Origin: Nemertoderma westbladi
Lineage: Eukaryota > Animalia > Xenacoelomorpha
NCBI GenBank assembly: GCA_032718475.1
Contig: JAUCBJ010007531.1
Coordinates: forward strand, 1-59,778
Length of the DNA stretch: 59,778 bases
Direction of reading: 5' to 3'
How positions within the stretch are numbered: position 1 is the first letter of the stretch; each line of letters opens with the position of its first letter. Both the position numbers and the translations under genes were made by a program. A model generated the notes under the pieces. That model was not told where the DNA came from and did no database searches. It was given only the letters and a program-made list of their open reading frames with translations. Of the stretch, positions 26,163 through 59,012 are shown one piece after another.

Positions 26163-29100
26163 TCACGTTATGGAGTCCCTAGATATTTGCCGGAGTAGGG
26201 AAGTAGTCGTAGGAAGAGTATCTTGCCTTCCATAGTTTTCGGACAGTTTTCGGTCTCTTTCCAGTAAACATAAACGACTAGCTGGGCGATTGAGTTGTTG
26301 TGTTACTTTCTCCGCTCCCTTGGCCTGTCTAATTTCTGCCGTGGTAAGATGAGGAGGCCATTCTTCTTCTTCTTTACTTAAGGAGTCGGATCCACCTAAC
26401 CAGCCTGGAGTATCTATCAGTTCTTGAGGAGTTGCTCCTCTGGAAGCGATGTCGGCTGGATTAATCGTCCCAAGGCAATGTCTCCATTGATCTACATTGG
26501 AGTTAATATCGTCATTATCTGAGGAGTATGGTGTTCCCTCAGTTGGGTCGTCCACATCACTGCTCTCCACTTCCCCCTTTACTTGGTATACCTGTTGTTG
26601 AGGTAATCTCTCTTTGAGAGTTCTACGGGAAGGGCCAGTGAAGTACCAACCTACTCTAGTTCTTACCGCATAAGTTTGCAGTGGCTGCGGTTGAGCAGGC
26701 CGTTTCTCCAATGGCTCGAGCGCCTCATGCGCGTTTTGGCCGATGAGTATTTGCACTCCAGGATAATCTGTCTGGAATCGAGGTATCTTAAGATGTTGGA
26801 TGTTCTCATCCTCGTCCCAATTATAAGGTTCTGCTTGAGTAGTAGCAAAGTTCTTTATAGCCACCATTTTTACTGACCTTATACTTTGTGCTCCTAATTT
26901 ATCCTGGGGGGTGGACAACGCACCTACATAGTAATCTGCCGTTAGGGTAGATTTCCAAACCTGCATAATTCCTGACATATTCAATTTAGTCCGGAACTTG
27001 GGTTGTCCAGCAAAGATATCTTCGGCTAGTTCTTGATCGATGAATGTTCCTGTGCTGCCGGAGTCAAGTAGGGCGTTCACTATGTAACTCTTGTTGGGAC
27101 CATGAACTCGAACTTGCACTACAGGAAATTCTCTTATTCCTATGTTGGAAGTTGGAACTTTCCAAGATGGTTGTTTGTCAAAAGGAGTTGGAGTAAACTC
27201 GTCAGTGTCCTTTTCATCCGTAAGTGCTCGATACACTGTGGTATTTATTAGATAACAGGATTCGTTGGCATCGGAGAATTCGTCTGTATAGAATCCTTCC
27301 CACTCAGAACCTTGGTCAGTGTCGTTCACATCACTGAATTGGACATGTAGTTCGGGCTCACTTACCTGACTCGGGTTGTCTCGTTCGAACTCACTGTGTA
27401 ACAAAATGTGATGTTTCGCGCCACACTTTGCACACTTTGCGTCGGAGTAACAGGTTCGCCGTTGGTGTCCTGATCTGAGGCAATTATAGCATAACCGCTT
27501 ATTCCACAGGACTGTACGTCTGTCTACAGGGGATTTCTTTAGAAATTCAGCACACGCACTCAAACGGTGAGGCCCGTCGCACAGCGCACATTTTGGTTTG
27601 ATGTTACTCACCTTAACTTGGTTAACGTTATGCACTCTCGTTCTTTCTTCGGGCTTTCTTCCGTGAATTCTCTTAGGAGACGTAGGAGGAGTTGTTGTTA
27701 CCTGTTCTCTCCTGTCACTGGTTCGAGACTTGTATTTACTTACGTCTTTATAGGTCTTGTTGTCATAGTAAGATTTTGCTGTGTCTTTCCCGCTGTCCTC
27801 TTCTTGAGAAGCTTGGCTCTCGCCGTCGTCAGTATAACACACTGGTATTATCCTTCTCCTAGAATCGGGTTTCTCACTTACCTTATTTTTCGATGTTTTC
27901 TCTCTGGACTGCCTTATGAGTTGTAATTTTACTTCACTATCTAAGAAAGACATGAGATCAGCCATGGTAGGACTTCGTCGTTGTTGTTCATTCATGTACA
28001 ACACTTTCTTGTCCCAGCGTGTACATACTCCACCCTTTGGTAAAGTAGAGACTACGGCTCCAATAACCATGGAACTCTGATATTCATGCGACTTACCTAA
28101 CCAGTCCAGTTGTCTACAGATCTCTTGAATTTCATCGGAAAACTCTATAATCTCGCTACTAAGGAAGTGTCGGGGGGCTACTAATTTTGCATACAAATAC
28201 TTAGCTATGTTATCCTTGTTACCATACCTGATGTTTAATGTATCCCAAACTTGTCTTAATCCATCTGGATGTCCAATAAACTTTAACGCCATTAACTTGG
28301 GAGGTCCTTCCAAACACTTGATGAGGAACCTAAGTTTCTCTCCGTTAGATAGTACAGAGTTCTGTATGCTATCTTTGTAATATTCGTTGAAAGGTAACCA
28401 TTTCATCTCATCTCCATTGAATTTGACGATCTCTCCCACTTTGACCGCTTGGCGGGCTTCTGTTCTAGCCATCTGACGCGTAAAGCTTTCTTGGGCCATC
28501 GTGTTATTTAATATCGAATTATCGGTATATAAATTTCTTGGATCATTATCAGGTCTATAGGGAATATCATTAATAACAGGTCTATAATCACCCTTAATAG
28601 GGTTTGCTATAGGAGTTTCAACTTCACTAGCAGTATAGATGCGTGTAGGCTCCACACCTTGCGCATGTGATACTTCAGACCTAACGGGTTGACTCAATGT
28701 TACCGGGGGCATTGGTATGCCTTTTTGTATATTGACTAATTTGTCGCGTTCTAGCGCGATACTTTGCTGCACTTCTTGCAACTCTGCTCTACTTTCCCTC
28801 ACTGTTCCCTTAAGTTGGTGGACAGTCTCCTGCATCTGTCCTAGCAGGAGATTCATCCCCCGCCGTCCCTCTTCCACCCACTCAACCGCCGAAGCGGGAG
28901 TCGCTAACATAGTAGCGGGCTGACGCGGGACGACGGGAGACAAATTATTGATTTCTCTCTCTGCTATCTGGACAGGGGTATTTGCATGGACTGTTCCGCC
29001 GGGTACAGGTAGTGTAGTGCTATGTAAAGGGAATTTAGAGTTAAGCTCTGGAAGTGCAGGGGTCTCTAGCACAGAAGTGACTTTGGGAATTACAGGCCTA

Positions 29101-30806
29101 ATTATTTCAGGTTCATCGACTATAGTAGGGAGTCTTTTGACCTGGATAAATTGTTCTATAGGTTCTGCCCTACCTAAATCTGTGCTAGTTAGCTGTCTTT
29201 TAACAGCTGGGGGTAAATCAGGCAATTTACGACGGTAATATGTTTTTCTACGCCTACTTAGATGAGATCTATCTCCTCCGCCTTCAGGGTCTGTAGTATC
29301 GCCTTCCTCCGATGATGTGTACCCTTGGCGCTTGGGAGTAGATTTTCTCATCATCTGCATCTGATTAGCAGTATACTGTTTATTTATACTGTCTTGTGTC
29401 TCTTGCAGATTTTCTAACTCCAGTTGGGTAGTCTGCTCAGATGCTCTCCTTTCTGCTTCTGCCACTGCCTTTGCCACTTTTCTTTTTGCTTCTACTTCTG
29501 CCTCTGCCTCTGCAGCCGCTGCCTTTCTTTCTGCTTCTGCATTTGCCTTTGCCACCGTCTTTGCTGCTTTACTTTCTGCTTCTGCCTCTGCTATAGCCGC
29601 CGCCATAGCCGCCGTTTTTTGTTCCTCTATCCTTCTTTTCTTTATTTGTTCTTCTCGGACTCTAGTGAGACGGAGTTTTTCATCACATTCAGCTTGGTTT
29701 GCAGCTATCATTTCAATATCGATCGCGTCCAGTATAAGCTTGGTTCCTTCACTACTAGGGGAAAGTCCATGTAGCCGTCTCCTCAACTCTTCGTCTCCTA
29801 GGAATCGCTGATAGTCGGACAAATAAATGTCGATAGCGTCTCTAGTTTGCGGTTTCTCGGCGGCCTCTTCGCTTTTCGCTTGAGCAAGGGTGACATCAGT
29901 TGGTTCGGTGACATCAGTTGGTTCCTCATAGGTTGATCTCTCAGCCAGTTGGGATTTCCAATGGGCTGTTTCCTGTATTTTGAGATCTACCCGATGTAGC
30001 CAAGTTTTGACAGCAACCTGCAGCGACGTGTCCTGTCTTCTTTTGGAAGTTTCCTCAAAGGCTGAGAGGATTAGTCGAATGCGTAGGGTTCTTTCGCGTA
30101 TTTGATATAGCAGTTCTTCCTGCTCTTGAGGTCCGTGAGGTTGTCGAAACAGCTGCCCTTCCAATCGCTCCAAGGATCCGAAGAATCCCTGCACATATCC
30201 TGCTGCCGACCTCTTCCAAACAGCTGGATCCATTGTATCTTTTGCCACTCCCATCCTGTGTATATCTTCCCAAGTAGCCTCAGACAGGTCCAACGGGAGT
30301 CCGAGTCCGGGAAAGTTCCATTGTGATTCAACAACAGATATCAATTCTTCCCTGGCGTATCCCGCGTAATCATCTTGGGTCGCTTGCTTATTCTTCGCCC
30401 AGTCGGCTTGATGTTCCTCCACCGCAATGAGTATAGTAGTTAGTACTGCAGCAGGAAGAGTAAGAAGGGGGTCCGAGTAGACTGTATCAGCCATCTGCAC
30501 TCCATGTTCGGGAGTCAACTCTACAGTATCCGAACTGCTGGAGCTATCCGGTCTCTGGGAAGTAGGTTCTTGACCAAGATGTTGCTGCGATAGGACAGCT
30601 GCCTCTTGGTCCCGTTTTACCTGTGCCCGAGTGCCTATGATGGACCTATGGTGGACTAGCCTAGGGTCTGATACTACTGGAGGGATGACCTTTTTTACAG
30701 TAGGAGGTGAGCCGAACTTCTCTATTATTCGCTCCACTCTCCTATCTGAATCACAGATAGTGGTCTCGATCAGACTGTCCGACAGGTTTTGCTGAGTGTC
30801 AGACAT
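26163..30806 (-). CDS. BEL/Pao Gag-protease polyprotein with internally deleted Pol (1547 aa)
   Basis: Pao gag region (IVKFNGDEMKW..F...LSNGEKLRFLIKCLEG), three BEL Cys/His knuckles (CALCDGPH..C, CYNCLRSGH...C, CAKCGAKHHILLH), protease ALLDSGS / ILIG / TRVGW. After that only the RNase H tail WRH....NPADIASRG and the integrase tail RPASRLCLL remain; no RT core. Confidence 0.93.
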   Translation of the reverse strand: MSDTQQNLSDSLIETTICDSDRRVERIIEKFGSPPTVKKVIPPVVSDPRLVHHRSIIGTRAQVKRDQEAAVLSQQHLGQEPTSQRPDSSSSSDTVELTPEHGVQMADTVYSDPLLTLPAAVLTTILIAVEEHQADWAKNKQATQDDYAGYAREELISVVESQWNFPGLGLPLDLSEATWEDIHRMGVAKDTMDPAVWKRSAAGYVQGFFGSLERLEGQLFRQPHGPQEQEELLYQIRERTLRIRLILSAFEETSKRRQDTSLQVAVKTWLHRVDLKIQETAHWKSQLAERSTYEEPTDVTEPTDVTLAQAKSEEAAEKPQTRDAIDIYLSDYQRFLGDEELRRRLHGLSPSSEGTKLILDAIDIEMIAANQAECDEKLRLTRVREEQIKKRRIEEQKTAAMAAAIAEAEAESKAAKTVAKANAEAERKAAAAEAEAEVEAKRKVAKAVAEAERRASEQTTQLELENLQETQDSINKQYTANQMQMMRKSTPKRQGYTSSEEGDTTDPEGGGDRSHLSRRRKTYYRRKLPDLPPAVKRQLTSTDLGRAEPIEQFIQVKRLPTIVDEPEIIRPVIPKVTSVLETPALPELNSKFPLHSTTLPVPGGTVHANTPVQIAEREINNLSPVVPRQPATMLATPASAVEWVEEGRRGMNLLLGQMQETVHQLKGTVRESRAELQEVQQSIALERDKLVNIQKGIPMPPVTLSQPVRSEVSHAQGVEPTRIYTASEVETPIANPIKGDYRPVINDIPYRPDNDPRNLYTDNSILNNTMAQESFTRQMARTEARQAVKVGEIVKFNGDEMKWLPFNEYYKDSIQNSVLSNGEKLRFLIKCLEGPPKLMALKFIGHPDGLRQVWDTLNIRYGNKDNIAKYLYAKLVAPRHFLSSEIIEFSDEIQEICRQLDWLGKSHEYQSSMVIGAVVSTLPKGGVCTRWDKKVLYMNEQQRRSPTMADLMSFLDSEVKLQLIRQSREKTSKNKVSEKPDSRRRIIPVCYTDDGESQASQEEDSGKDTAKSYYDNKTYKDVSKYKSRTSDRREQVTTTPPTSPKRIHGRKPEERTRVHNVNQVKVSNIKPKCALCDGPHRLSACAEFLKKSPVDRRTVLWNKRLCYNCLRSGHQRRTCYSDAKCAKCGAKHHILLHSEFERDNPSQVSEPELHVQFSDVNDTDQGSEWEGFYTDEFSDANESCYLINTTVYRALTDEKDTDEFTPTPFDKQPSWKVPTSNIGIREFPVVQVRVHGPNKSYIVNALLDSGSTGTFIDQELAEDIFAGQPKFRTKLNMSGIMQVWKSTLTADYYVGALSTPQDKLGAQSIRSVKMVAIKNFATTQAEPYNWDEDENIQHLKIPRFQTDYPGVQILIGQNAHEALEPLEKRPAQPQPLQTYAVRTRVGWYFTGPSRRTLKERLPQQQVYQVKGEVESSDVDDPTEGTPYSSDNDDINSNVDQWRHCLGTINPADIASRGATPQELIDTPGWLGGSDSLSKEEEEWPPHLTTAEIRQAKGAEKVTQQLNRPASRLCLLERDRKLSENYGRQDTLPTTTSLLRQISRDSIT

Positions 30807-32095
30807 GTTTAGTTATACAGTTGAATGTCTACTACTATAATTTCAGTTAAAGCAAATCTAGTAATTCAGTATGACCGCAAGCCTAGCGATTTATTACCGG
30901 TACCGTTACTCAGTGGAACGTGATATATATACAATATATTAGAATACCGGTATGCTTATAATATATAAGTATTATTACAGACTAGATTTGTCACAGAGTA
31001 CCGGTATATAATTTTAGCACAAATATATATATATATAGTAGGCCTATAATGAATACCGGTATACAGCTTACACTTATAGTATATAAGTATAATTCTGGAC
31101 TAGAATTAATTACAGAGTACCGGTATGATTTCAGCTCAAATTTATAGAAATAAATATAATAAGCCTATGGTAAGTACCGGTATGTCAATTATTTTTAGAA
31201 TAATTGAATTTCTGAATATTTTGGGGTTACTTCGTTACTTTAACTTACTTTATTACCGTTATTTAAGCAGTAGTCCAACTGACAGTGAGACCTAGTCGTT
31301 GTATGGCAGGCCTACTATTTATAAATCGTTTGAGTTGATTTATAATAGATATATACCCGTTTAAAAGGGTTTTTGACAATGTTTGAAATAAATGTTATTA
31401 TTTCTGGGGAAGTCACTACACAGAAGCTGAACGCTTCTCAGTGAAGTGCTATTTATTTGACACTAAAACTGATAATTCTAATTTACCTAAGTTACTTAAT
31501 ACTACGAATTACTTACGATACGGGTGAGATTAATTCTCTAATTAAACACAACAAAATATTACGTACGAAATTTTTAGGGTAATTTTACAGGAAGTCTACA
31601 AACCAGTCCAACAAAGGGTTAGATTTCTGGCTATTACAAAGGACAGAGTACTACGGTGTTTAAAATAATAAGTAGTAGTAAATATATTGTACTGTCCAGA
31701 TAGGAAAATACCACCGCCTGACGACCTATAACCGTATCGCTATAGGTACTACGTTATGTATCACGGATTGTTCCTATCCAGAAGTTAATAGAGCTAACGA
31801 ATGTGCCTATCAACCACTTTACAATACAAAAATACTGCCTACACTAATTACTTCGGAAGGCACTGTACTCTAAACCCTAAATTAGGTACAAGTACCGGTA
31901 TAACAAATAATCAGTAGTTAAATATACTTGAACAGTTAAAAGAACCACGGCATCTGCTGGAGTGACCGAAGCACAAAGTCGTCAGTCTTTACCTACGCCA
32001 AGCAGCCCTGATGTAGTACCGGGGTTAGTTTAACTATAACGGTATGTATAACAAGCACAATTACTGTAGGAATAAACTTGGGGACATGAATGTTG

Positions 32096-49858: not shown

Positions 49859-50117
49859 TCTATCCAAAATAATAAGCTTATAATATATATGTAATGGTTA
49901 AAATATAGAAATAACTTTTTTGACTGATTTTTTTTTATTATTTATTGCAAACTATTAATTGTTTGCAATAAATGAATTAAATTATAAAAATTAAAACTTT
50001 ATGTCATTATTTTATATAGTTAATTTGCAATAAATAATTAAAAAATCAGTCAAAAAAGTTATTTCTATATTTTAACCATTACATATACTGTATTATACGC
50101 TTATTATTTTGGATAGA
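49859..50117. mobile_element. AT-rich palindromic MITE-like element
   Basis: Inverted arms of about 95 bp (TCTATCCAAAATAATAAGC...TTATTTATTGCAAA and its reverse complement); no clear TSD. Confidence 0.65.
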
Positions 50118-50424: not shown

Positions 50425-51177
50425 ATGGCAGAATCAAATTCATATAAAATTACAGGAGATGGTAAACAATTATGTCTGATAATAAATATTACAGATTATC
50501 GCGGTACTAACTATGATGATAGAGGAAAAGGGTCTTCGCATGATGTTCAATACATTAAGGAAATATTTGGAGGCAAGTTGGGTTGCGAGATAGCAGAATA
50601 TACAGATGAGAAAGGTGAAGTGAAGAAGAACATAACAGATGCTGAGTTGATACAATTCCTAACTGATTTTCGTAATCAGAAAGAATTAAAAGACATCGAG
50701 TGTCTTTTTGTATTCCTTATGAGCCATGGAGTTGAGGATTCGCTTGTTTGTTCTAACAAAGTAACAGTTCCTATAAAAGAAATTGTGGAACTATTTTCAA
50801 CAGAATGTTTGGCACTAAGTGGTCCGATAGCACAACCTCGGATATTCTTTATAGAAGCTTGTCAATCAAATGATTATCCAGACTTCGAATTAAATTTGAC
50901 TGATCGTAAATTTGAACATACAGCTGTAGCAATCGGTTGCAGTCCAGGTGAGACGTTACCAATCTACGAAGACCAAGGGTCGACTTTCATACATTATGTT
51001 TGTAAACTAGTTAACAATATCCTAAATAAAAAAACAGCTGGGGATGATGTTAAAGTGGATTTATTACCAGTGTTGAGGAATTATAACATAGCGCATCAAG
51101 GTACTCAAGAGAGTTCAATTGTTTCGCGACCACAAGTATTTGACAACTTGTCGTTTGGGAGTTGGTCCTGGTGGTGA
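50425..51177 (+). pseudogene. Caspase-like (peptidase C14) domain, N-terminal part of a disrupted Apaf-1-like gene
   Basis: LCLIIN, G...D, CLFVFLMSHG (catalytic His), PRIFFIEACQ (catalytic Cys), and p10-like PG......GSTFI and RPQV. Confidence 0.85.
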
Positions 51178-52360
51178 AAATATCATCCTGCAGAAAATGA
51201 AAGAAATGTGTTTATTGTTAGATGAAACGAGTTCTCAATTAGTCAGCCAGTTGTTCAGTATTGAAAGCTGCAAAAATGCATTGAATAAAATTATTCACAA
51301 GCATCCCCCAAAACGATTTTTGATAATTTTGGATGATGTTTGGGATGAATTTGTAACAGAAGCTTACGATCTAAATTGCAAAATCATGCTGACAACACGT
51401 GATAAGATGTGTATTTATGCTGATTGCTCTAATGTATCTGAAATTCATGTTGCGGCTGGGTTGAGTAAACCCCAATGTTCTGAATTACTTGGAAAATGGC
51501 TCGGAGATGGAGAAATTTCCAAGATGGCGGAAGTTAAACATTTAATTTCTAAATGCCATGGCTCACCTTTAGCAGTCAATGTAGTAGGGGCCATAAAGAA
51601 ATACAATCCTCAAGTTACATGGAAAAATATTGAAGATCGTCTATGTCAATTAGATGCGAGAAAAATGTCTAAGTTGAAATATAACAATTCAATAAACTCC
51701 ACAATCGAACTCAGCATTGAATATCTGCCCGAAACACAGAGAGAACTCTATTTTCAGTTGGCTCTTTTTTCACAAGTAGGGTGTCAAGAATTTCAAAAGG
51801 AAATTGTTGCGTTTATATGAGATTTCAATATTTTTGACACAACAATGACTTTGAATGATTTGGTTAGTAAATCTCTTCTTTCCTATAATTCCAATCTAGA
51901 ACTTTGGTTTTTACACCCATTGTTGACAGAATTTGTTATTGATAAACGAAGAGATTCAGTTGAGAATCATCGACTCTTAGTAGAAAAATATGAAATAAAT
52001 CAAATAATATCTGGAGATGAACCTCAGGAATTAGATAAATATATGATTGATTTCCTTGCTGATCATATGGCTAAAGCAAATCTCTGGGTAGAAAGACATG
52101 AACTTCTAACTGACATTATGTGGATTAAATCAAAGATTGAGTTCAGTGGACCTGCGAATCTCATAGCTGATTACGATTTGGTAGACCATAAACATTCTGA
52201 AGACCAAAAATCAGAACTGAACTATTACTGCGCCGTCATAAAATACGCTGCCAATTTAAGAGGAGAAGCGTCTTGCGATATTATTCAAGTTGGTTTCATG
52301 ACCTCCAAATCTTCGGATTTTTACAAAAAGGCACTGGAATTTGCTGTTCGAGATAAGTAA
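51150..52360 (+). pseudogene. Apaf-1-like NB-ARC plus helical domains, disrupted
   Basis: Walker B LIILDDVWD, sensor-1 CKIMLTTRDK, CHGSPLA (GxP), LVSKSLL and LHPLL. Walker A is absent, the frame differs from the caspase ORF, and there is an in-frame TGA at 51818-51820 where Trp is expected. Confidence 0.85.
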
Positions 52361-53679
52361 CTTTTATTCAAAAATGTGGGGTGAACTCTCAGTTCACGCA
52401 ATTACATTAGGCCTATTCTTTTGAAAACATTTAAATTAATTATCATATGATCTCTTTTGCAGGTTTTCTGACCATATAATACTGTATTAACTTTATAACT
52501 CTCTCACACACAATGATAGGAGTCAGTCAACTTTGTGCAACCTTGTCGGATTCTGGAATGACTTATCCTCCCAGATAGATCATCTCTGGATCTCAAATTT
52601 ATACGAATTAGGGAACTTATGAATGAAAAAAGATATATGAACTGAAAGTTAGTTAGAAAAACAAGTGCATATCTGTCATAATCATTGCCAAAATTGTCAA
52701 TAATGTTATGGCAACATTATTACTGTGAATGCACCACATAAGTCTGTAAGTGCTAACGCGGGATTTCCTTGGTAAAGTGGCACCATAACAGTGATTTCTG
52801 AAAGTACCAATGTGCTATCTCAGTAACAGACTTTAGCAACATTTAGCAACACAAATTCTGCACCACCCGCAAGAGGGCTCAACAGTTCTAAAGTGCTAAC
52901 TTACTAAAAACACCAATAACAATAGGAATATTAGCAAAGTTAGGAGTTTGAAGTGATGGTATCTGTAAATCTTGAAAGATAATGATTAGTTGTTTTTGTG
53001 CTGAATATTTCAAGACACCACACATCATAAAATGCTAACTCGTTATTCGTTCTTTTCTTTGGGATGTGAATGGGTATTGAATTATATTATAATAGGCCTA
53101 AATTTTTAATCATTTGTTTCAAAAATATCAATATTTATTTAGTTTCAACAACGTCAAGAGAATCAAGATATTTATATTAAAATTTAAGTAACATTACAGA
53201 ACATAGTTTTTCTAATGTTTCTTATAGTGTTATGGATTGTTTGAAAATCAAGATGTTCAGAATAAATTTAAATTACATTATTTGAACGTTACAAATTGGT
53301 TGGTAACATTATTTCAACGTTTCAAATTGGTAGGTAACGGAATTGGGGAGTGGGGGGTGTACACACCAAATTTTATACTACCAAGTTTTTGCTAATTTTA
53401 TTTATAAAAATGTTCTCAAACATAAAATATATTAAATTAAAATATATTATATCGTTCTATATTTTTCGTTTTCAAAATAAATAAAGAATGTTAAAAAATG
53501 TTCTCTTTTTTAAACAATAGAACATTTCTGCATTTCCAATCGCTAATTTCTCCTTCTACCAAAGGGGGTCAGAACCTTGATGCGCATATATGACAATGAA
53601 TGCTTGTATCTATGGATGTATGTTACCACTATATAATTTCTGCTGATTGGAATTATCACATTGTCATCTATATTGTGAT

Positions 53680-54460
53680 CTATGGTTGATTAAAAAGCAA
53701 TAAATGCAAGCAATAAACGCAATAAATAGAATGATGTACCGGCTTGACGACAAAATGGCGCCGCCACAACTCCCTATCACCCATGACATTTGCTAGATCA
53801 TCCGCATCTTCAAGGCCAGTGTCCTTTAAGATGCGTCTCAAGAAAGTCATGGGCTGTCCACCATGCTTATTCGCTCCATGAGGCTGCCAAAGTACAAGAT
53901 TATGCACTGACTGGTCTAAACGGCGAAAGCAATGTCCTGCAAAGCGGAGGCGGGTTTGTTCTAGTGTCAAGCCTAGGGGAACCAATGAGACACCTCCAAT
54001 GATATATAGTGTCTGGTTGGAGATGTGGGGAATTTACTTGACACAGTCAACCCGGCGTAGCATTCTTGTGAATGTGCCATCCAGAGATTTGGTGTCCTCA
54101 GCAGTTAGAGCCCAGCATGGACTCCCATAGAGGAGTACTGGAACTACTGCTGCTCTAAATAATCGGACCTTAAGTTTCCGATTAATTCTATGTGACTTCC
54201 AAATCCTGGAAAGCCTATTCAAGGCTGCCCATGCCTTTTCCTTACGTATTCGAAGGTCTTCAACTGACCTACGGATCCATGAACCCAGGTAACAGAAGTC
54301 GTCCACATGCTCAAGCACTACTGTCAAAATTTTGGTCCTTTTATGGAGCTAATAAAAAGACCAACACTAGAAGCAGCCTGTTATAATGAGCTGAGGAGCC
54401 GTTGGACTCCCTCTAGTAATTCTGAGAGTACTCCTAAGTCATCAGCAAAAGTCTAGATGA
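53680..54460 (-). mobile_element. RTE/RTE-X-like LINE 3' fragment (RT end and C-terminus)
   Basis: Frameshifted LDF/ADDL at about 54436-54457; FCYLGS, KAWAALNRLSRIWKS, VLLYG, LDGTFTRMLRRV, RLRFAGHCFRR. Confidence 0.88.
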
Positions 54461-54764
54461 GTTAGCTTGTTTGTTAACTATAACTTTTGTTCAACTATTA
54501 TGTTGCAAATCTTTTATACATTCTTAGCCTGTGCAAGATACAGTATATAAGTATAAGTTGTGTTACAGATACAAAGTTAACTGACACTCAGATTTTGTAA
54601 CAGAACACAGATTTGTATTCAGGTACTCAATTATTCGTAACTGGGAATGCCAATTCGTAACCAGGCGCTCAGATCCGTAACTCAAATTCATAACCGCTAC
54701 CAGTTAACTGTTTTTTATGAATTAAATAATACAGGCATAGAAGGCCCTTATCGGGCCTTCTATG

Positions 54765-55630
54765 GGATAGGTATTTTTACAGAACACAAGCGAACACCCC
54801 CAAACACACCCGAACACAATCCAAAAACTACCGAACACAATCGAACACAGTCGAAAATAGAAAGAGCACAAAAAAATAACACCGGGTACCAACTTTTAGA
54901 TAAAATTAGCCACGCGTTGCTTTTCGATAAGAAAATTTCCGAAATTATTGAATAAAATTGTCGCGAAATTAAATATTCATTTCTTATCAGGTAGGCCTAT
55001 CATTTGTTGTGTACTGCTATATTGTATATCAAAATACAGTATGTAGGGAAGCCTACTGGGTTCCGTACCTGTCATATAATTATAGTAATAGCGGGTTAGC
55101 TACAGTAATAGGCCTGTGTGTACTGGAATAGCTTGGTCTGGGACTGATTGCTGATGATATGAATTAGGAAGTTAGGCCCGTTACCGTACGTAATGTACAG
55201 CACGTCGGTACAACATAGGTACCGGTACCGGTACCTACCTGCCTACTGCTACTGCTGTACTTGAATATAAAGAGCTGGGTCCCGGTTAGGTACCTACCGT
55301 GGCAGGTACCGGTACCGGTAGGGATCTCTGTCCCGGTGCTAACCACAGAACCACACATAACTTAGGCCTACTACTATGTTAAATTATTAGTTGTCGGCTT
55401 AGGCTAGACTTGATCTGATAAGAAATTAATATTTAATTTCGCGACAATTTTATTCAATAATTTCGGGAATTTTCTTATAGGCAAGCAACGCGTGGCTAAT
55501 TTTATCTAAAAGTTGGTACACGGTGTTATTTTTTTGTGTTCTTTCTATTTTCGACTGTATTCGTCAGTTTTTGGAGTGTGTTTGGGGGTGTTCTACTGTG
55601 TTCGCTTGTGTTCTGTAAAAAGATCTATCC
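54765..55630. mobile_element. MULE-like non-autonomous element (866 bp)
   Basis: TIRs of about 220 bp starting GGATAG; flanking 9-bp duplication CCTTCTATG / TCTTCTATG with one mismatch. Confidence 0.75.
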
Positions 55631-55740
55631 TCTTCTATGCCCGTCACTATTAGCAAGAATATTATAAAATATTGGATAGCAAATTATTAGTACCGGTAGT
55701 ATAATATCCCTCTCTGTTTAGTTTATCTTATTATTTGCAG

Positions 55741-58031
55741 AAAATAAACTTTATTTCGATCTCAGTAACTCAATGAATAGAACAGGATATGAAACAGATG
55801 AAACCTTATCGATAAAGTTACTGGAGGATTACGAGACCCGGTTAACATATGGAATTCAGTTTTCTGCTGATGGAAAAAAGATTCTTGTACACGTCGATAA
55901 TAAGTTAATGATTTGTGATGCTGCCCGTGGCAAAAAGATTCTTACAGAAGATAAAATTAATATAAATCCGTCGCTATATATATATGATGCAAAATTATCG
56001 GCGGATGGAAGAAGAATATGTTACCGAACTCTAGAAGGTTATATTTATATTAGGAATGCAACTGATGGAGAATTAATATTCCCCCCTTTTGATTCCCATT
56101 CAGTAATAAAGGAGGAAGATATAATCAATATAACATCACCGATACTCACAAACAGTATAAATTTCCATCCAATTGATTCAAATATATTATGTTTCTCGTC
56201 CCACAACGGGACTATCAGTTGTATCAATACGAAGGTCCCTGACTCCCCTATAACTTGGGAGGCCCACTCTCCTATCAGCCTCCCGCTAATTCCTCCAGCT
56301 GATCCGGATCTGAACTATTATCAACTACGTAACCTCATTGTCCCCTTTCGAATTTCATTCTCACCTTCTGGTAATTATTTACTTAGTTTTTCAAATGTTC
56401 ATAAGGAGATTAAACTTTGGGATTTTATGAATTTTTTATCGTCAATACAGGTACCAATTAAAGTCTATGAGTTCAGCCAATTTTGTATAGAAGGTCTCGA
56501 TTGGGTGGCAGACGATAGAATGATTATAGTATACAAAGATAATGTTGAGTCAAAGGGGGTCGAAATAGAATGTCGGAACGTATTGGATGGGCAGCGGATG
56601 TGGGGGAGGGGATCTACCAACGAGGACTACAACCTCCACCTACAAGGAATTAAATACCTCGGAGCGGTGGATCGCGTTCTTATAATATGCGGATATCCAT
56701 TGGGGCGATCGGTTACAGCATTTTTCGACGGAAAAACCGGAAAACTAAACCACGCAATGGAAATCGGTTCAACCGAACCGGTTAAGTTGATGTCCATCCC
56801 CGCTGATCTTTCTCCATCTGGTAAGTTTATGTGTTACTGTACCGTTGGGCCCCATACTGTAACACTAAACGTTAACAGATTAGGTACAGAATCGTCCAGC
56901 GGTGGTAAACCAACTGGATACTGGAGGGTTCGAGCTGTTCTGGATACGGACCCGGTTACCATAGCAGCGGATACGTGGTACTCCCTCCATATAATGGATA
57001 TGGAAGGGAATATTAAACTGAATAAAGACGAAGAGAGTCCGATATCTTCTTTAACTGGAATAGAAAACCAACCGGTTTTCGCTTACGGGTGTGACAATGG
57101 AATTTTACGGGTTTATTATAAAAATAAATTAATTACTTTACCAACAACGTCTACTGAATGTGTAGAGGGATTAGTTTTTGTTGCTCCATCGAACTATTTA
57201 GTTAGTATAGCGGCTGGTGTGGAGTTATAAAGAGTCGGCTGATTCAGGTTTATTTGGAAAATTGTATAAATGGTTTTTTGAGAAACCGGGTAAATTACTC
57301 CGTAGTTTAGTTCCAAATCCGGGGTCTAAGATTATGCAGTTAGTAGCATTAAACTGTAACAATACAGTAGCAACTCTAGATGAGAGCGGTAAATTAGTTC
57401 TTACCGATATATTAACTGGGAATCATTCGGTTGTTGGTGAATTCCCAGTGGGTTGTGGGTTGGAAGTTTTACCTGATTCTAGAATTATTCTTATTTATGG
57501 GTTTAGTAATAAGTTATTCAGTTGGATATTAAAAGTAACTGATGACGGATTCCCAGTTACTGAGTTAGGAAGTTTCAGTTTATCAGGAATTGAAGTCTCC
57601 CCCAACAGTTCCTATATAGCCGTAGGAAAGGGTTCAGTTGTATTAGTTTATACTAAAGACGGAATTCCGTTTCCTATAAATAATACAACTTTAAATGAAA
57701 ATGAGTTAGATTTTATTAACGAAGCGAATAATTGGATTAATAAATTAGCCAATATTACTGAGTATAATAATTACCAACCTACGGCTATAATAAACACTGT
57801 AGAGGGGGTCAGAGGGGTGGACTTTGTAAACAAAGATTGTGATACGATTATTATTAGAGGCGATTTAAATATTTCGATATTTTCAGTTATAGGTGAATTT
57901 TTACAAAGAATTCCTGTAAGAGTTGGACCTGCTTCATTCAACATCAGCTTTTAAACTCATTGAAATTTGTAGTTGTTGGTGATGATCGTAATATTTATAT
58001 ATTTAAACAATTAAATAGGTTAATTAATTAA
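55741..58031 (+). pseudogene. WD40/beta-propeller C-terminal region of the Apaf-1-like gene, frameshifted
   Basis: Acceptor TTTGCAG at 55740; WD-like motifs IQFSADGKKI, LSADGRRI, ISFSPSGNYLLS...IKLWD, FAYGCDNGILRVY. Frameshifts near 57220 and 57952; the tail reads LNSLKFVVVGDDRNIYIFKQLNRLIN*. Confidence 0.8.
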
Positions 58032-58679
58032 CTACTATGTTATTTTTATATCTATTGACATTTGATACTAAGTTTTTCGCTGGAAGATATAAACTTTCAA
58101 TGCAAATAACTCGGAATAATAATTTATCATTATTGTGCAAATCCAAATGCCAATTCAAATTTTTAACTAATATAATAAGTAAGCCAACGTACTGATGCTT
58201 TAATTATTATATTTAATTGCTATAAATATATTAATTTGTTACAATAATTTAACATTTCAGTCCCAACAACTGGACATTAAATATGGGTATATCAACAGGC
58301 CAGGAAAAGTTTTTTTAAGAGTCCTGTCAAATAATTAGGATAGTTTTCTATGGATATATTACTCATTTCAACGGTAGATAACGTACACTTTATATTTTGG
58401 CATAATGGGAGGTATTTATATTAAGTATTGAACATTTATATATTGTTATGGATAATATTAAATATTTGGATAATTTTCGATAATTTATATTCAATTATTT
58501 TTTTCTACCAACTAATATTTACTGGAGAATTCATTTGACTGGGATTCATTAAACTGGAGAATTTTGTAAGATTTAATAATGAATTTATTTTTAAAATTTA
58601 CATTATTACCGCTCAGTCAATGGGCTAGCGGTAAATAAGATTTGCGAATTATTGCTCTTGAATCAGCCAACTTTGTAGG

Positions 58680-59012
58680 CCCTACTCTAATAAATACAGC
58701 CACATTCTACCTCTTAATCCACTATATAAACATCAACTAGCGCTCTTCATGTATGACATAAATAACTCTCTATCCGGAACTACTGATATAGGAAATTTTT
58801 TTAGAAAAACTGAATCAATACACAGGTACCCTACTCGCTCTTCCTCTCGCGGTGATTATTACATACAAACTGCCCGACTCACGTCTACCCAACAATCCGT
58901 GAGCTTCCAAGGCCCCCTGATCTGGAATGTCATCCCACCCTATATCCGGGAAAGGAAATCCAAAGTTTCATTTTCCCGAACTTACAAAAAATTACTGTTC
59001 TCTCAAATATAA
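58680..59012 (+). mobile_element. 3' end of an L2/Crack/CR1-type LINE ORF2
   Basis: FMY....HRYPTR...SVSFQGPLIWNVIPPYIR...SF..YK is a typical C-terminus for these clades. Confidence 0.75.

Follow-up and report, generated by a model that had tools for sequence, protein, structure and literature searches.

A broken copy of a multi-copy gene family in Nemertoderma westbladi that carries a caspase domain directly ahead of an Apaf-1-type body

The locus described here belongs to an animal gene family with several copies, whose members place a caspase domain directly ahead of an Apaf-1-type body, and this copy is broken. It lies on the plus strand of a 59,778 nt stretch from Nemertoderma westbladi (the window, by which the whole stretch is meant), where caspase, NB-ARC, helical domains, an intron and WD40 region follow one another, the body being colinear with Apaf-1. 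That caspase, NB-ARC, helical and WD40 parts share one strand had been claimed in a first-pass annotation, and Pfam, PDB and profile alignments place all of them at the positions claimed. Intact members of the family probably carry the caspase in frame before the NB-ARC-helical-WD40 body in one chain of about 1,500 residues (243+93+401+767), which is predicted to act as a self-contained sensor-protease. The window copy itself is a pseudogene. NACHT or LRR domains as in animal NLRs are absent, with NB-ARC and WD40 in their stead (Pfam). The features are as follows.

50425..51153, plus strand: caspase-type protease domain, 243 aa, ATG at 50425, without a prodomain
51150..51156, plus strand: site where 278 nt are deleted out of frame (roughly 93 codons, comprising linker and NB-ARC start with Walker A)
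51155..51817, plus strand: remainder of the NB-ARC and helical domain 1, with Walker B (LDDVWD), sensor-1 (TTRD) and GxP (GSPL) present
51818..51820, plus strand: premature TGA stop, TGG (Trp) in other copies
51821..52356, plus strand: end of the winged helix and Apaf-1 helical domain 2 (APAF1_C; Apaf-1 profile positions 407-578)
52357..55740 (ends approximate), plus strand: intron of about 3.4 kb, from splice phases
55741..57216, plus strand: first part of a divergent WD40 beta-propeller region that is colinear with Apaf-1
57216..57217, plus strand: 11-nt deletion (frameshift); 11 added bases bring both WD40 frames into register
57217..57951, plus strand: WD40 region, second part, weakly recognised (hhalign, Atlas)
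57951..58031, plus strand: C-terminal strand in a third frame, TAA at 58029-31 (hhalign and frames)

The N-terminal domain is matched by Pfam Peptidase_C14 over caspase residues 15-198 (E 2.8e-21; 76.7 bits against a cutoff of 21.4), and the intact His-Cys dyad can be read directly as His101 in SHG (50725-27) and Cys146 in IEACQ (50860-62), the two motifs that had been claimed. The best PDB matches are effector caspases (the best at 44 bits) and the nearest Atlas clusters are caspase-3/7-like, with Eukaryota at 100%. The small subunit alone gave no PDB match in a pairwise search, and a single-sequence AlphaFold model of the domain had a pLDDT of 36.5. The Asp-specific S1 pocket (Arg, Gln, Arg) appears incomplete: the first Arg aligns (PDB alignment), Glu144 stands where QACxG has Gln (read directly and in the PDB alignment), and the second Arg, that of the small subunit, was not found in a by-eye alignment to the usual caspase layout. 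With Glu in place of Gln ahead of the catalytic Cys, and without a recognisable second Arg, the P1 pocket is predicted to be altered, and cleavage after Asp, as in classical caspases, may not be what this protease does.

Two pocket residues out of three look changed, which would also suit a domain that does not execute cleavage itself but serves for docking or as a decoy, either pairing with another caspase or being cut by one or by a protease of a pathogen. The lack of a prodomain, the short linker (about 19 aa) that leads from the catalytic Cys to the strand of the small subunit, and the strong divergence of the domain, seen in its best PDB score of 44 bits and the absence of a word-index match, point the same way. 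However, the dyad and its motifs are intact, no change at the dyad occurs among the best-supported rows of copy differences, and the amphioxus receptor-caspase fusions retain their active site according to the accessible text of PMC2575513. We consider a decoy role unlikely, and prefer an executing enzyme with an altered pocket.

For the second domain (frame 51092-51817), Pfam NB-ARC matches with E 7.7e-20 at model positions 89-247 only, so that the window copy has no Walker A. Its best solved-structure match is Apaf-1 (PDB, E 3.6e-23), and positions 181-384 of the Apaf-1 profile match the NB-ARC remainder with 149 bits. Pfam APAF1_C covers the following helical domain almost end to end (51821-52357, E 4.6e-19, model 5-134 of 135), and the MHD-type motif reads LHP in the window copy.

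What is missing at the junction can be deduced from the paralogs, several of which are contained in same-species DNA runs. One paralog contig joins 51082 to 51156 via 351 letters where the window has 73, and hence the window lacks 278 nt, or about 93 codons. The paralog spacing (record positions 233 to 584) is exactly 117 codons and in frame, judged by length and frame; by chance, such a spacing would be in frame in 1 of 3 cases. This joint is seen in runs X1, X2 and X3 (two samples, two studies), and only one paralog type bridges the junction among the rows listed. The X1 joint contig has 112 letters on its short side and a depth of 31.9, similar to the 36-37 of near-identical contigs, while that of X2/X3, both runs being from one sample, has 43. 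The bridging records measure 1081 nt in X1 and 1931 nt in X2. In addition, a contig from X4 extends 330 letters beyond 51104 without rematching, the predicted gap being 329 letters. No contig spanning a whole gene is among the rows listed.

An out-of-frame deletion near 51150 in a fused gene, as the first-pass annotation had postulated, is thus measured at 278 nt relative to an in-frame paralog. It had been described as reaching from the last caspase strand through Walker A. The start of the NB-ARC with Walker A is indeed gone; the last strand, however, was probably kept, as RPQVFDNL, which we take to be that strand by visual comparison with the usual caspase layout, is seemingly retained, and one paralog contig aligns gap-free with the window up to 51155, across the caspase end. 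The deletion has therefore probably removed the caspase tail or linker together with the NB-ARC start and spared the last strand. In intact paralogs, the 351-letter joint would have room for Walker A. Paralog likeness, as read from an X3 record, begins 10 nt upstream of the caspase ATG. A junction at about 51116, which had been suggested by Apaf-1 likeness in a shifted frame, was rejected: in the loose paralog ends, the codon pattern of the caspase frame persists, by visual reading, up to about 51135, and colinearity with one paralog extends to 51155.

The length of the joint also bears on whether the two parts were ever separate. In 10 of 12 Apaf-1 proteins, 70 residues lie between the NB-ARC start motif and the point where the window resumes (71 in one; one was not measurable). 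Subtracting about 70 from the roughly 93 missing codons leaves about 23, too few for a CARD. Pfam finds no CARD at the locus, so the claimed absence of a CARD between caspase and NB-ARC is upheld on both counts. The first-pass annotation had named as its alternative a deletion that joined two neighbouring genes. In this scenario, caspase and Apaf-1-like body would be two linked genes, or would be separated by a small intron and an adaptor exon, and be joined in the window copy only. The joint is known by its length and frame, and no RNA run was among those listed, which leaves some room for such an arrangement, but 69 nt would hardly accommodate a CARD, or a stop, a promoter and a new start, and the spacing is in frame. 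We regard it as very unlikely, and favour the single reading frame.

The window copy is broken at four places, three of which are seen as lesions against other copies. Besides the 278-nt deletion, these are the TGA stop, where A>G at 51820 takes all depth in X2, X3 and X4 and 31.1 of 68.5 in X1, and the frameshift at 57216, where 11 additional nt are carried by 1526.5 out of a depth of 1632.1 in X2 and by the full depth of 29.8 in X4 (no entry is listed for X1 and X3) and correct the frame offset from 1489 to 1500. A check of raw reads had been proposed at 51818 and 57220, among other places; other copies have TGG at the former and, close to the latter, 11 extra bases at 57216. A further frameshift near 57950 is inferred from the three frames and is absent among the read rows listed; the break claimed at 57952 is present, although it is not a plain stop and follows this frameshift. 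The intact paralogs that had been thought possible are partly in evidence, as there are copies that lack the 51820 stop and copies that lack the 57216 frameshift, although none is whole in one contig among the rows listed.

Errors of assembly in a gene that is whole in the animal are an extremely unlikely cause of the breaks. Two findings are as such errors would predict: no near-identical contig (best 32 of 142 rows) bridges the deleted junction of the window copy, and sample S2 has TGG at what is seemingly the same locus. However, the 51820 stop lies within a stretch over which one X1 contig matches the window letter for letter, three runs have near-identical contigs that start at 51152, as they would at a real branch point, and the copy has four distinct lesions, of which two are deletions of several bases. 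We thus retain the interpretation as a pseudogene.

The propellers are colinear with Apaf-1, strongly in the first part and weakly in the second. Against an alignment of 21 Apaf-1-type proteins, hhalign placed the first part (55722-57215) at columns 589-1007 with a probability of 97%, and the second at columns 1014-1150 with E 0.0098 and a probability of 4%. The first part has weak Pfam WD40-clan matches and no PDB match at E 0.01; the second has no Pfam match, and its likeness to WD40 in the Atlas falls short of the threshold for recognition. The propellers overall have no PDB match. The last short frame weakly resembles the final Apaf-1 strand (columns 1213-1230, E 0.023).

Synonymous changes are over-represented among the differences between copies. 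Of 65 listed differences, which are the best-supported rows and not an unbiased sample, 34 are at third codon positions (p 0.001), and 29 are synonymous, compared to 21% expected (p 2e-5). A synonymous difference at 57965 lies in the third frame.

Neither the protease nor the STAND part scores as metacaspase or prokaryote type (PDB, Atlas, profile scores). The animal Apaf-1 profile scores 149, 92 and 28 bits for three parts, compared to 98, 75 and 6 for a prokaryote-type profile of equal size, and 9 of the 10 top database matches are named animal Apaf-1. In the NB-ARC tree, the locus forms a long branch outside 30 animal rows (97/95) and outside 16 prokaryote-type rows (100/99), the rows nearest by path being animal; AU tests reject neither nesting in animals (p 0.318) nor nesting with four prokaryote-type rows (p 0.131). 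The latter value, the small number of introns, the existence of metacaspase-STAND-WD40 fusions in prokaryotes (PMC3501461, from its accessible text) and the CHAT or trypsin domains found at the caspase position in prokaryote-type relatives would accommodate horizontal transfer of an already fused gene from a bacterium, followed by expansion in the animal. We consider this highly improbable, because the caspase is nearest to animal effector caspases, the animal profile leads in all three parts, and APAF1_C is matched over 5-134 of 135 positions, compared to about 1-107 at most in the prokaryote-type rows listed. An animal origin of both parts remains our preferred reading.

Fused relatives were sought in several databases. 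Word-index searches with the caspase returned nothing, either among longer proteins (774 candidates) or near its length (190 candidates), and the search with the NB-ARC returned 4 Apaf-1-type proteins. HMMER against 1.84 billion representatives gave no close relative among the 150 best of 1474 listed (identities 23-33%). None of 154 database proteins had both caspase motifs, a check that metacaspase-type domains could escape. One protein (P0013) with a lone weak caspase score (E 0.005) proved to be an ordinary Apaf-1 with a CARD-sized start. In 29 of the matches with long N-termini, Peptidase_C14 was not among the best 25 Pfam families per protein; the domains recognised were CHAT, trypsin, TIR, SIR2, PNP, kinase and SEFIR. 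Two metagenome scans (46 and 220 candidates) confirmed none. An animal caspase-Apaf-1 fusion was not found in the literature text, most subscription papers and the architecture figures (Fig. 4 of PMC10959488, Fig. 2 of PMC2246300) being outside our reach.

The family shares with animal Apaf-1/Dark/CED-4 (CARD-NB-ARC-WD40) the order and spacing of NB-ARC, helical domains 1 and 2, winged helix and WD40, and these gave the best database and PDB matches. It differs by a catalytic caspase domain instead of a CARD, by an identity of at most about 33%, by its multiple copies with strongly diverged propellers, and by LHP at the MHD-type motif in the window copy. Apaf-1-like paralogs have also expanded in amphioxus, sea urchin, Nematostella and placozoans, with replacement of the N-terminus on an Apaf-1 body (double CARD, DD, DED, TIR); these N-termini are described as interaction domains, and no caspase domain is named in the accessible text (PMC2246300; PMC10959488; PMC6321704). 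The amphioxus TNFR-caspase and LRR-caspase proteins likewise join an animal sensor directly to a caspase but, as far as their description is accessible, lack a STAND ATPase switch and retain QACxG (PMC2575513). The order protease-STAND-repeat is known from prokaryotic metacaspase-NACHT-WD40, Chloroflexus metacaspase-NB-ARC and CHAT- or trypsin-NB-ARC-WD40 proteins (PMC3501461; PMC8195603, both from accessible text). Judged by the in-frame paralog spacing, protease-STAND-WD40 in one chain would probably apply to the present family as well. Here, however, the gene is a spliced one in an animal and both of its parts have animal-type scores; the resemblance is likely convergence, even though the tree rejects neither nesting.

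In the animals studied, apoptosome scaffold and caspase are separate proteins, linked by CARD contacts. By analogy with Apaf-1 and initiator caspases, the WD40 propellers of an intact member would at rest keep an ADP-bound NB-ARC closed; a ligand on the propellers would trigger ATP exchange and ring assembly; and the ring would crowd the tethered caspase domains, which would dimerise and become active without a CARD or a separate caspase-9. Such oligomerisation, with each protein switching on its own caspase, is likely in intact members. The ligand would probably be something beyond cytochrome c alone, because the propellers have diverged strongly and the copies have multiplied, fitting an immune-receptor role. 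We tentatively propose, as an idea that may well prove wrong, that single-chain apoptosomes have been assembled anew in an animal lineage from the caspase and the Apaf-1 which it already possessed, and have expanded into a family of immune receptors, in which variable WD40 regions sense different ligands and a built-in, re-tooled caspase cuts a non-classical target without CARD or caspase-9, convergent on the prokaryotic protease-STAND design. If so, Apaf-1 would here serve as a variable immune receptor, and the altered substrate pocket would imply a new downstream target. Such a natural fusion offers a direct test of induced proximity, namely whether ring assembly alone can activate a tethered caspase without a CARD disc. 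The value of the window copy is that it points to the family and documents its birth-and-death turnover.

Finally, the intron separating helical and WD40 regions contains a LINE remnant (DUF6451, E 9.9e-7) and an inverted-repeat element. Paralog likeness stops at 52366, and two splice pairs fit: GT 52357 with AG 55764-65, and a weak GT 52346 with AG 55720-21.

On a single strand and in order, the locus carries a caspase domain, an Apaf-1-like NB-ARC, helical domains and WD40-like frames, an arrangement proposed in the first-pass annotation and borne out by Pfam matches and by a profile built from 21 Apaf-1-type proteins:

50425 (ATG) onward, + strand: caspase ORF (Pfam Peptidase_C14, E 2.8e-21)
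second frame overlapping the caspase ORF, + strand: NB-ARC, model positions 89-247 (Pfam E 7.7e-20)
51818-20, + strand: stop codon TGA, read in the window sequence
3' of TGA 51818-20, + strand: APAF1_C (Pfam E 4.6e-19)
between APAF1_C and the WD40-like frames, + strand: repeat-laden intron of ~3.4 kb
3' of the intron, + strand: WD40-like frames

Profile positions 181-384 and 407-578 match the locus in order, positions 589-1007 are matched with a probability of 97%, and weak matches follow in the same order (1014-1150 and 1213-1230), so that Apaf-1 beyond about residue 180 is wholly present and colinear. The caspase occupies the place expected for the CARD and the start of the NB-ARC. The MHD-type motif (51914-51919) reads His-Pro in the window versus His-Asp in the profile; loss of this Asp renders plant NLRs auto-active.

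The region is present in four DNA sequencing runs (X1-X4) of one species, from three samples and three studies; no RNA run was among those listed as containing it. A bridging contig type (depth 31.9 in X1, 74.2 in X2 and 24.4 in X3, the latter two being one sample) matches 50971-51082 with its letters 122-233 and 51156-51345 with its letters 585-780, giving a spacing of 351 letters between the blocks versus 73 in the window. As a caspase codon begins at 51082, an NB-ARC codon begins at 51155, and the record span (584 - 233 = 351) is 117 codons, the two domains are in frame in this paralog. Relative to it the window is short of 278 nt, or ~93 codons, which substantiates the proposed out-of-frame deletion near 51150. 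In 10 of 12 Apaf-1 proteins, 70 residues separate the NB-ARC start motif from the point where the window resumes, so that the caspase tail and linker together are left with ~23 codons, too few for a CARD of ~90 residues. The spacing agrees with an ancestral caspase-NB-ARC gene devoid of a CARD, as had been suggested. The annotation's alternative, a deletion fusing two neighbouring genes, would confine the gene boundary to 69 nt, which is implausible. We infer that the 351-letter stretch of the paralog includes Walker A and keeps an open frame. A contig of X4 extends 330 letters past 51104 without matching again, in agreement with the bridging spacing, and near-identical contigs of X1, X2 and X3 start at 51152, suggestive of branching at the breakpoint. 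No contig bridging the window's own deleted junction was found among the 32 rows listed of 142.

Two other lesions were likewise recovered when copies were compared. Position 51820 is G (TGG) at full depth in each of X2, X3 and X4; in X1, G accounts for 31.1 out of a depth of 68.5. The TGA at 51818-20 is real in the X1 sample because an X1 contig is identical to the window there; the stop may mark a null allele that is segregating, or else a duplicate of very recent origin. A contig of sample S2 (51725-52428; 8 differences in 704 nt) spans 51820 and reaches the intron; the whole depth of S2 at this position is TGG, the TGA form occurring in X1. Near 57220, a point flagged for a check of raw reads, other copies possess 11 extra bases at 57216 (1526.5 of 1632.1 of the depth in X2, 29.8 of 29.8 in X4; none listed for X1 or X3), which bring two WD40 frames into register. 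The frames point to a fourth break near 57950. The copy in the window is a broken one.

The gene family is multi-copy, with a copy number that is not derivable from depth. Besides near-identical contigs, many are 80-95% alike over the coding parts: across 50930-51860, contigs with a likeness of 99+, 95-99, 90-95 and under 90% number 9, 1, 5 and 15 in X1 and 6, 13, 15 and 20 in X2. A single caspase position is covered by at most 10 contigs and a single tail position by at most 12, and paralog likeness runs from ~10 nt 5' of the ATG to 52366. Among 65 distinct coding differences, the best-supported of those listed from a longer full set, 34 affect the third codon position and 29 leave the residue unchanged, versus 21% expected; for these best-supported rows, the excess of synonymous changes indicates that purifying selection has acted on the family. 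Differences are clustered in the first propeller (56041-56131), where 8 of 9 listed rows, taken singly, change a residue, versus 18 of the 34 from the NB-ARC and helical region; this biased set of rows hints at a variable sensor surface.

The HMMER search returned no close relative, the best 150 matches being 23-33% identical. Named animal Apaf-1 proteins made up 9 of the top 10, and 6 of 10 further rows checked in the animal group were named animals. In the other group 2 of 10 checked rows were named bacteria, the remainder being unnamed or unlabelled, so that the label prokaryote-type rests partly on architecture (N-terminal CHAT, trypsin, TIR, SIR2, PNP or kinase). In a fast tree, built from the window and 151 of the 154 proteins, and in a careful one of 47 hand-chosen rows (30 of the 36 in the animal group and 16 of the remaining 115), the window sits between the two groups at the end of a long branch, animal rows being nearest by path. 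AU tests rejected neither its nesting with sponges (p 0.318) nor its nesting with four prokaryote-type rows (p 0.131). Equal-size profiles of three parts scored 149, 92 and 28 bits for animals versus 98, 75 and 6 for prokaryote-type proteins. For the caspase, the nearest clusters are eukaryotic ones of the caspase-3/7 type, and the nearest PDB entries are effector caspases. We read the locus as a fusion of animal parts, for which the tree is not proof.

Domain order, in-frame spacing (in the paralog) and the catalytic dyad were observed in the sequence, and a caspase-Apaf-1 fusion within the family is very probable. Apaf-1 and initiator caspases act through ligand-triggered nucleotide exchange, ring assembly and proximity-driven caspase dimerisation. 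By analogy, ligand would bind the WD40 propellers, nucleotide exchange and then ring assembly would follow, and the tethered caspase domains would dimerise by proximity; this full sensor-protease mechanism we consider reasonably likely. The fused protein would work like an apoptosome equipped with its own caspase and, at the same time, like a protease-STAND receptor of prokaryotes; it differs from strict Apaf-1 in having no CARD. Nor is its caspase clearly one of the Asp-specific caspases. In an alignment with PDB effector caspases Glu144 replaces the Gln preceding the catalytic motif, whereas the first Arg of the pocket has its counterpart; the small-subunit pocket Arg was not found by eye against the usual caspase layout. 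As an acidic residue at the place of Glu144 is typical of para- and metacaspases, which cleave after basic residues, the specificity is predicted to differ from the classical one.

Earlier work describes Apaf-1-like proteins of animals that bear a double CARD, DD, DED or TIR (PMC2246300, PMC10959488, PMC6321704, PMC11747288), TNFR-caspase and LRR-caspase fusions in amphioxus (PMC2575513), and, in prokaryotes, metacaspase-NACHT-WD40 proteins and two metacaspase-NB-ARC proteins of Chloroflexus (PMC3501461, PMC8195603); the protease-STAND-repeat design is already known from prokaryotes. The portions available of PMC4715348, PMC3879445 and PMC4986451 make no mention of a caspase-Apaf-1 fusion, and none in animals was found in the searched literature, with figures and most subscription papers outside reach.

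Elsewhere in the window, glutamate dehydrogenase gene pieces (Pfam ELFV) are spread over ~33 kb (12510-45147, + strand), separated by long tandem-repeat stretches and ending 5.3 kb before the start codon of the caspase. Amid them lies an open frame of 1549 codons (26163-30812, - strand; DUF1759, E 3.5e-12), presumably a BEL/Pao-type retrotransposon gag-like ORF. A 116-codon frame (58662-59012, + strand) without a Pfam match resembles, we presume, a LINE reverse-transcriptase tail. The locus intron holds a LINE-like remnant (53600-54450, - strand; DUF6451) whose depth exceeds that of the flanking DNA by a factor of thousands, and a MITE-like inverted-repeat element (54752-55643; 199-nt arms, 85%). 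Another MITE-like element, with perfect 48-nt arms (49859-50117), lies ~340 nt ahead of the caspase start codon.
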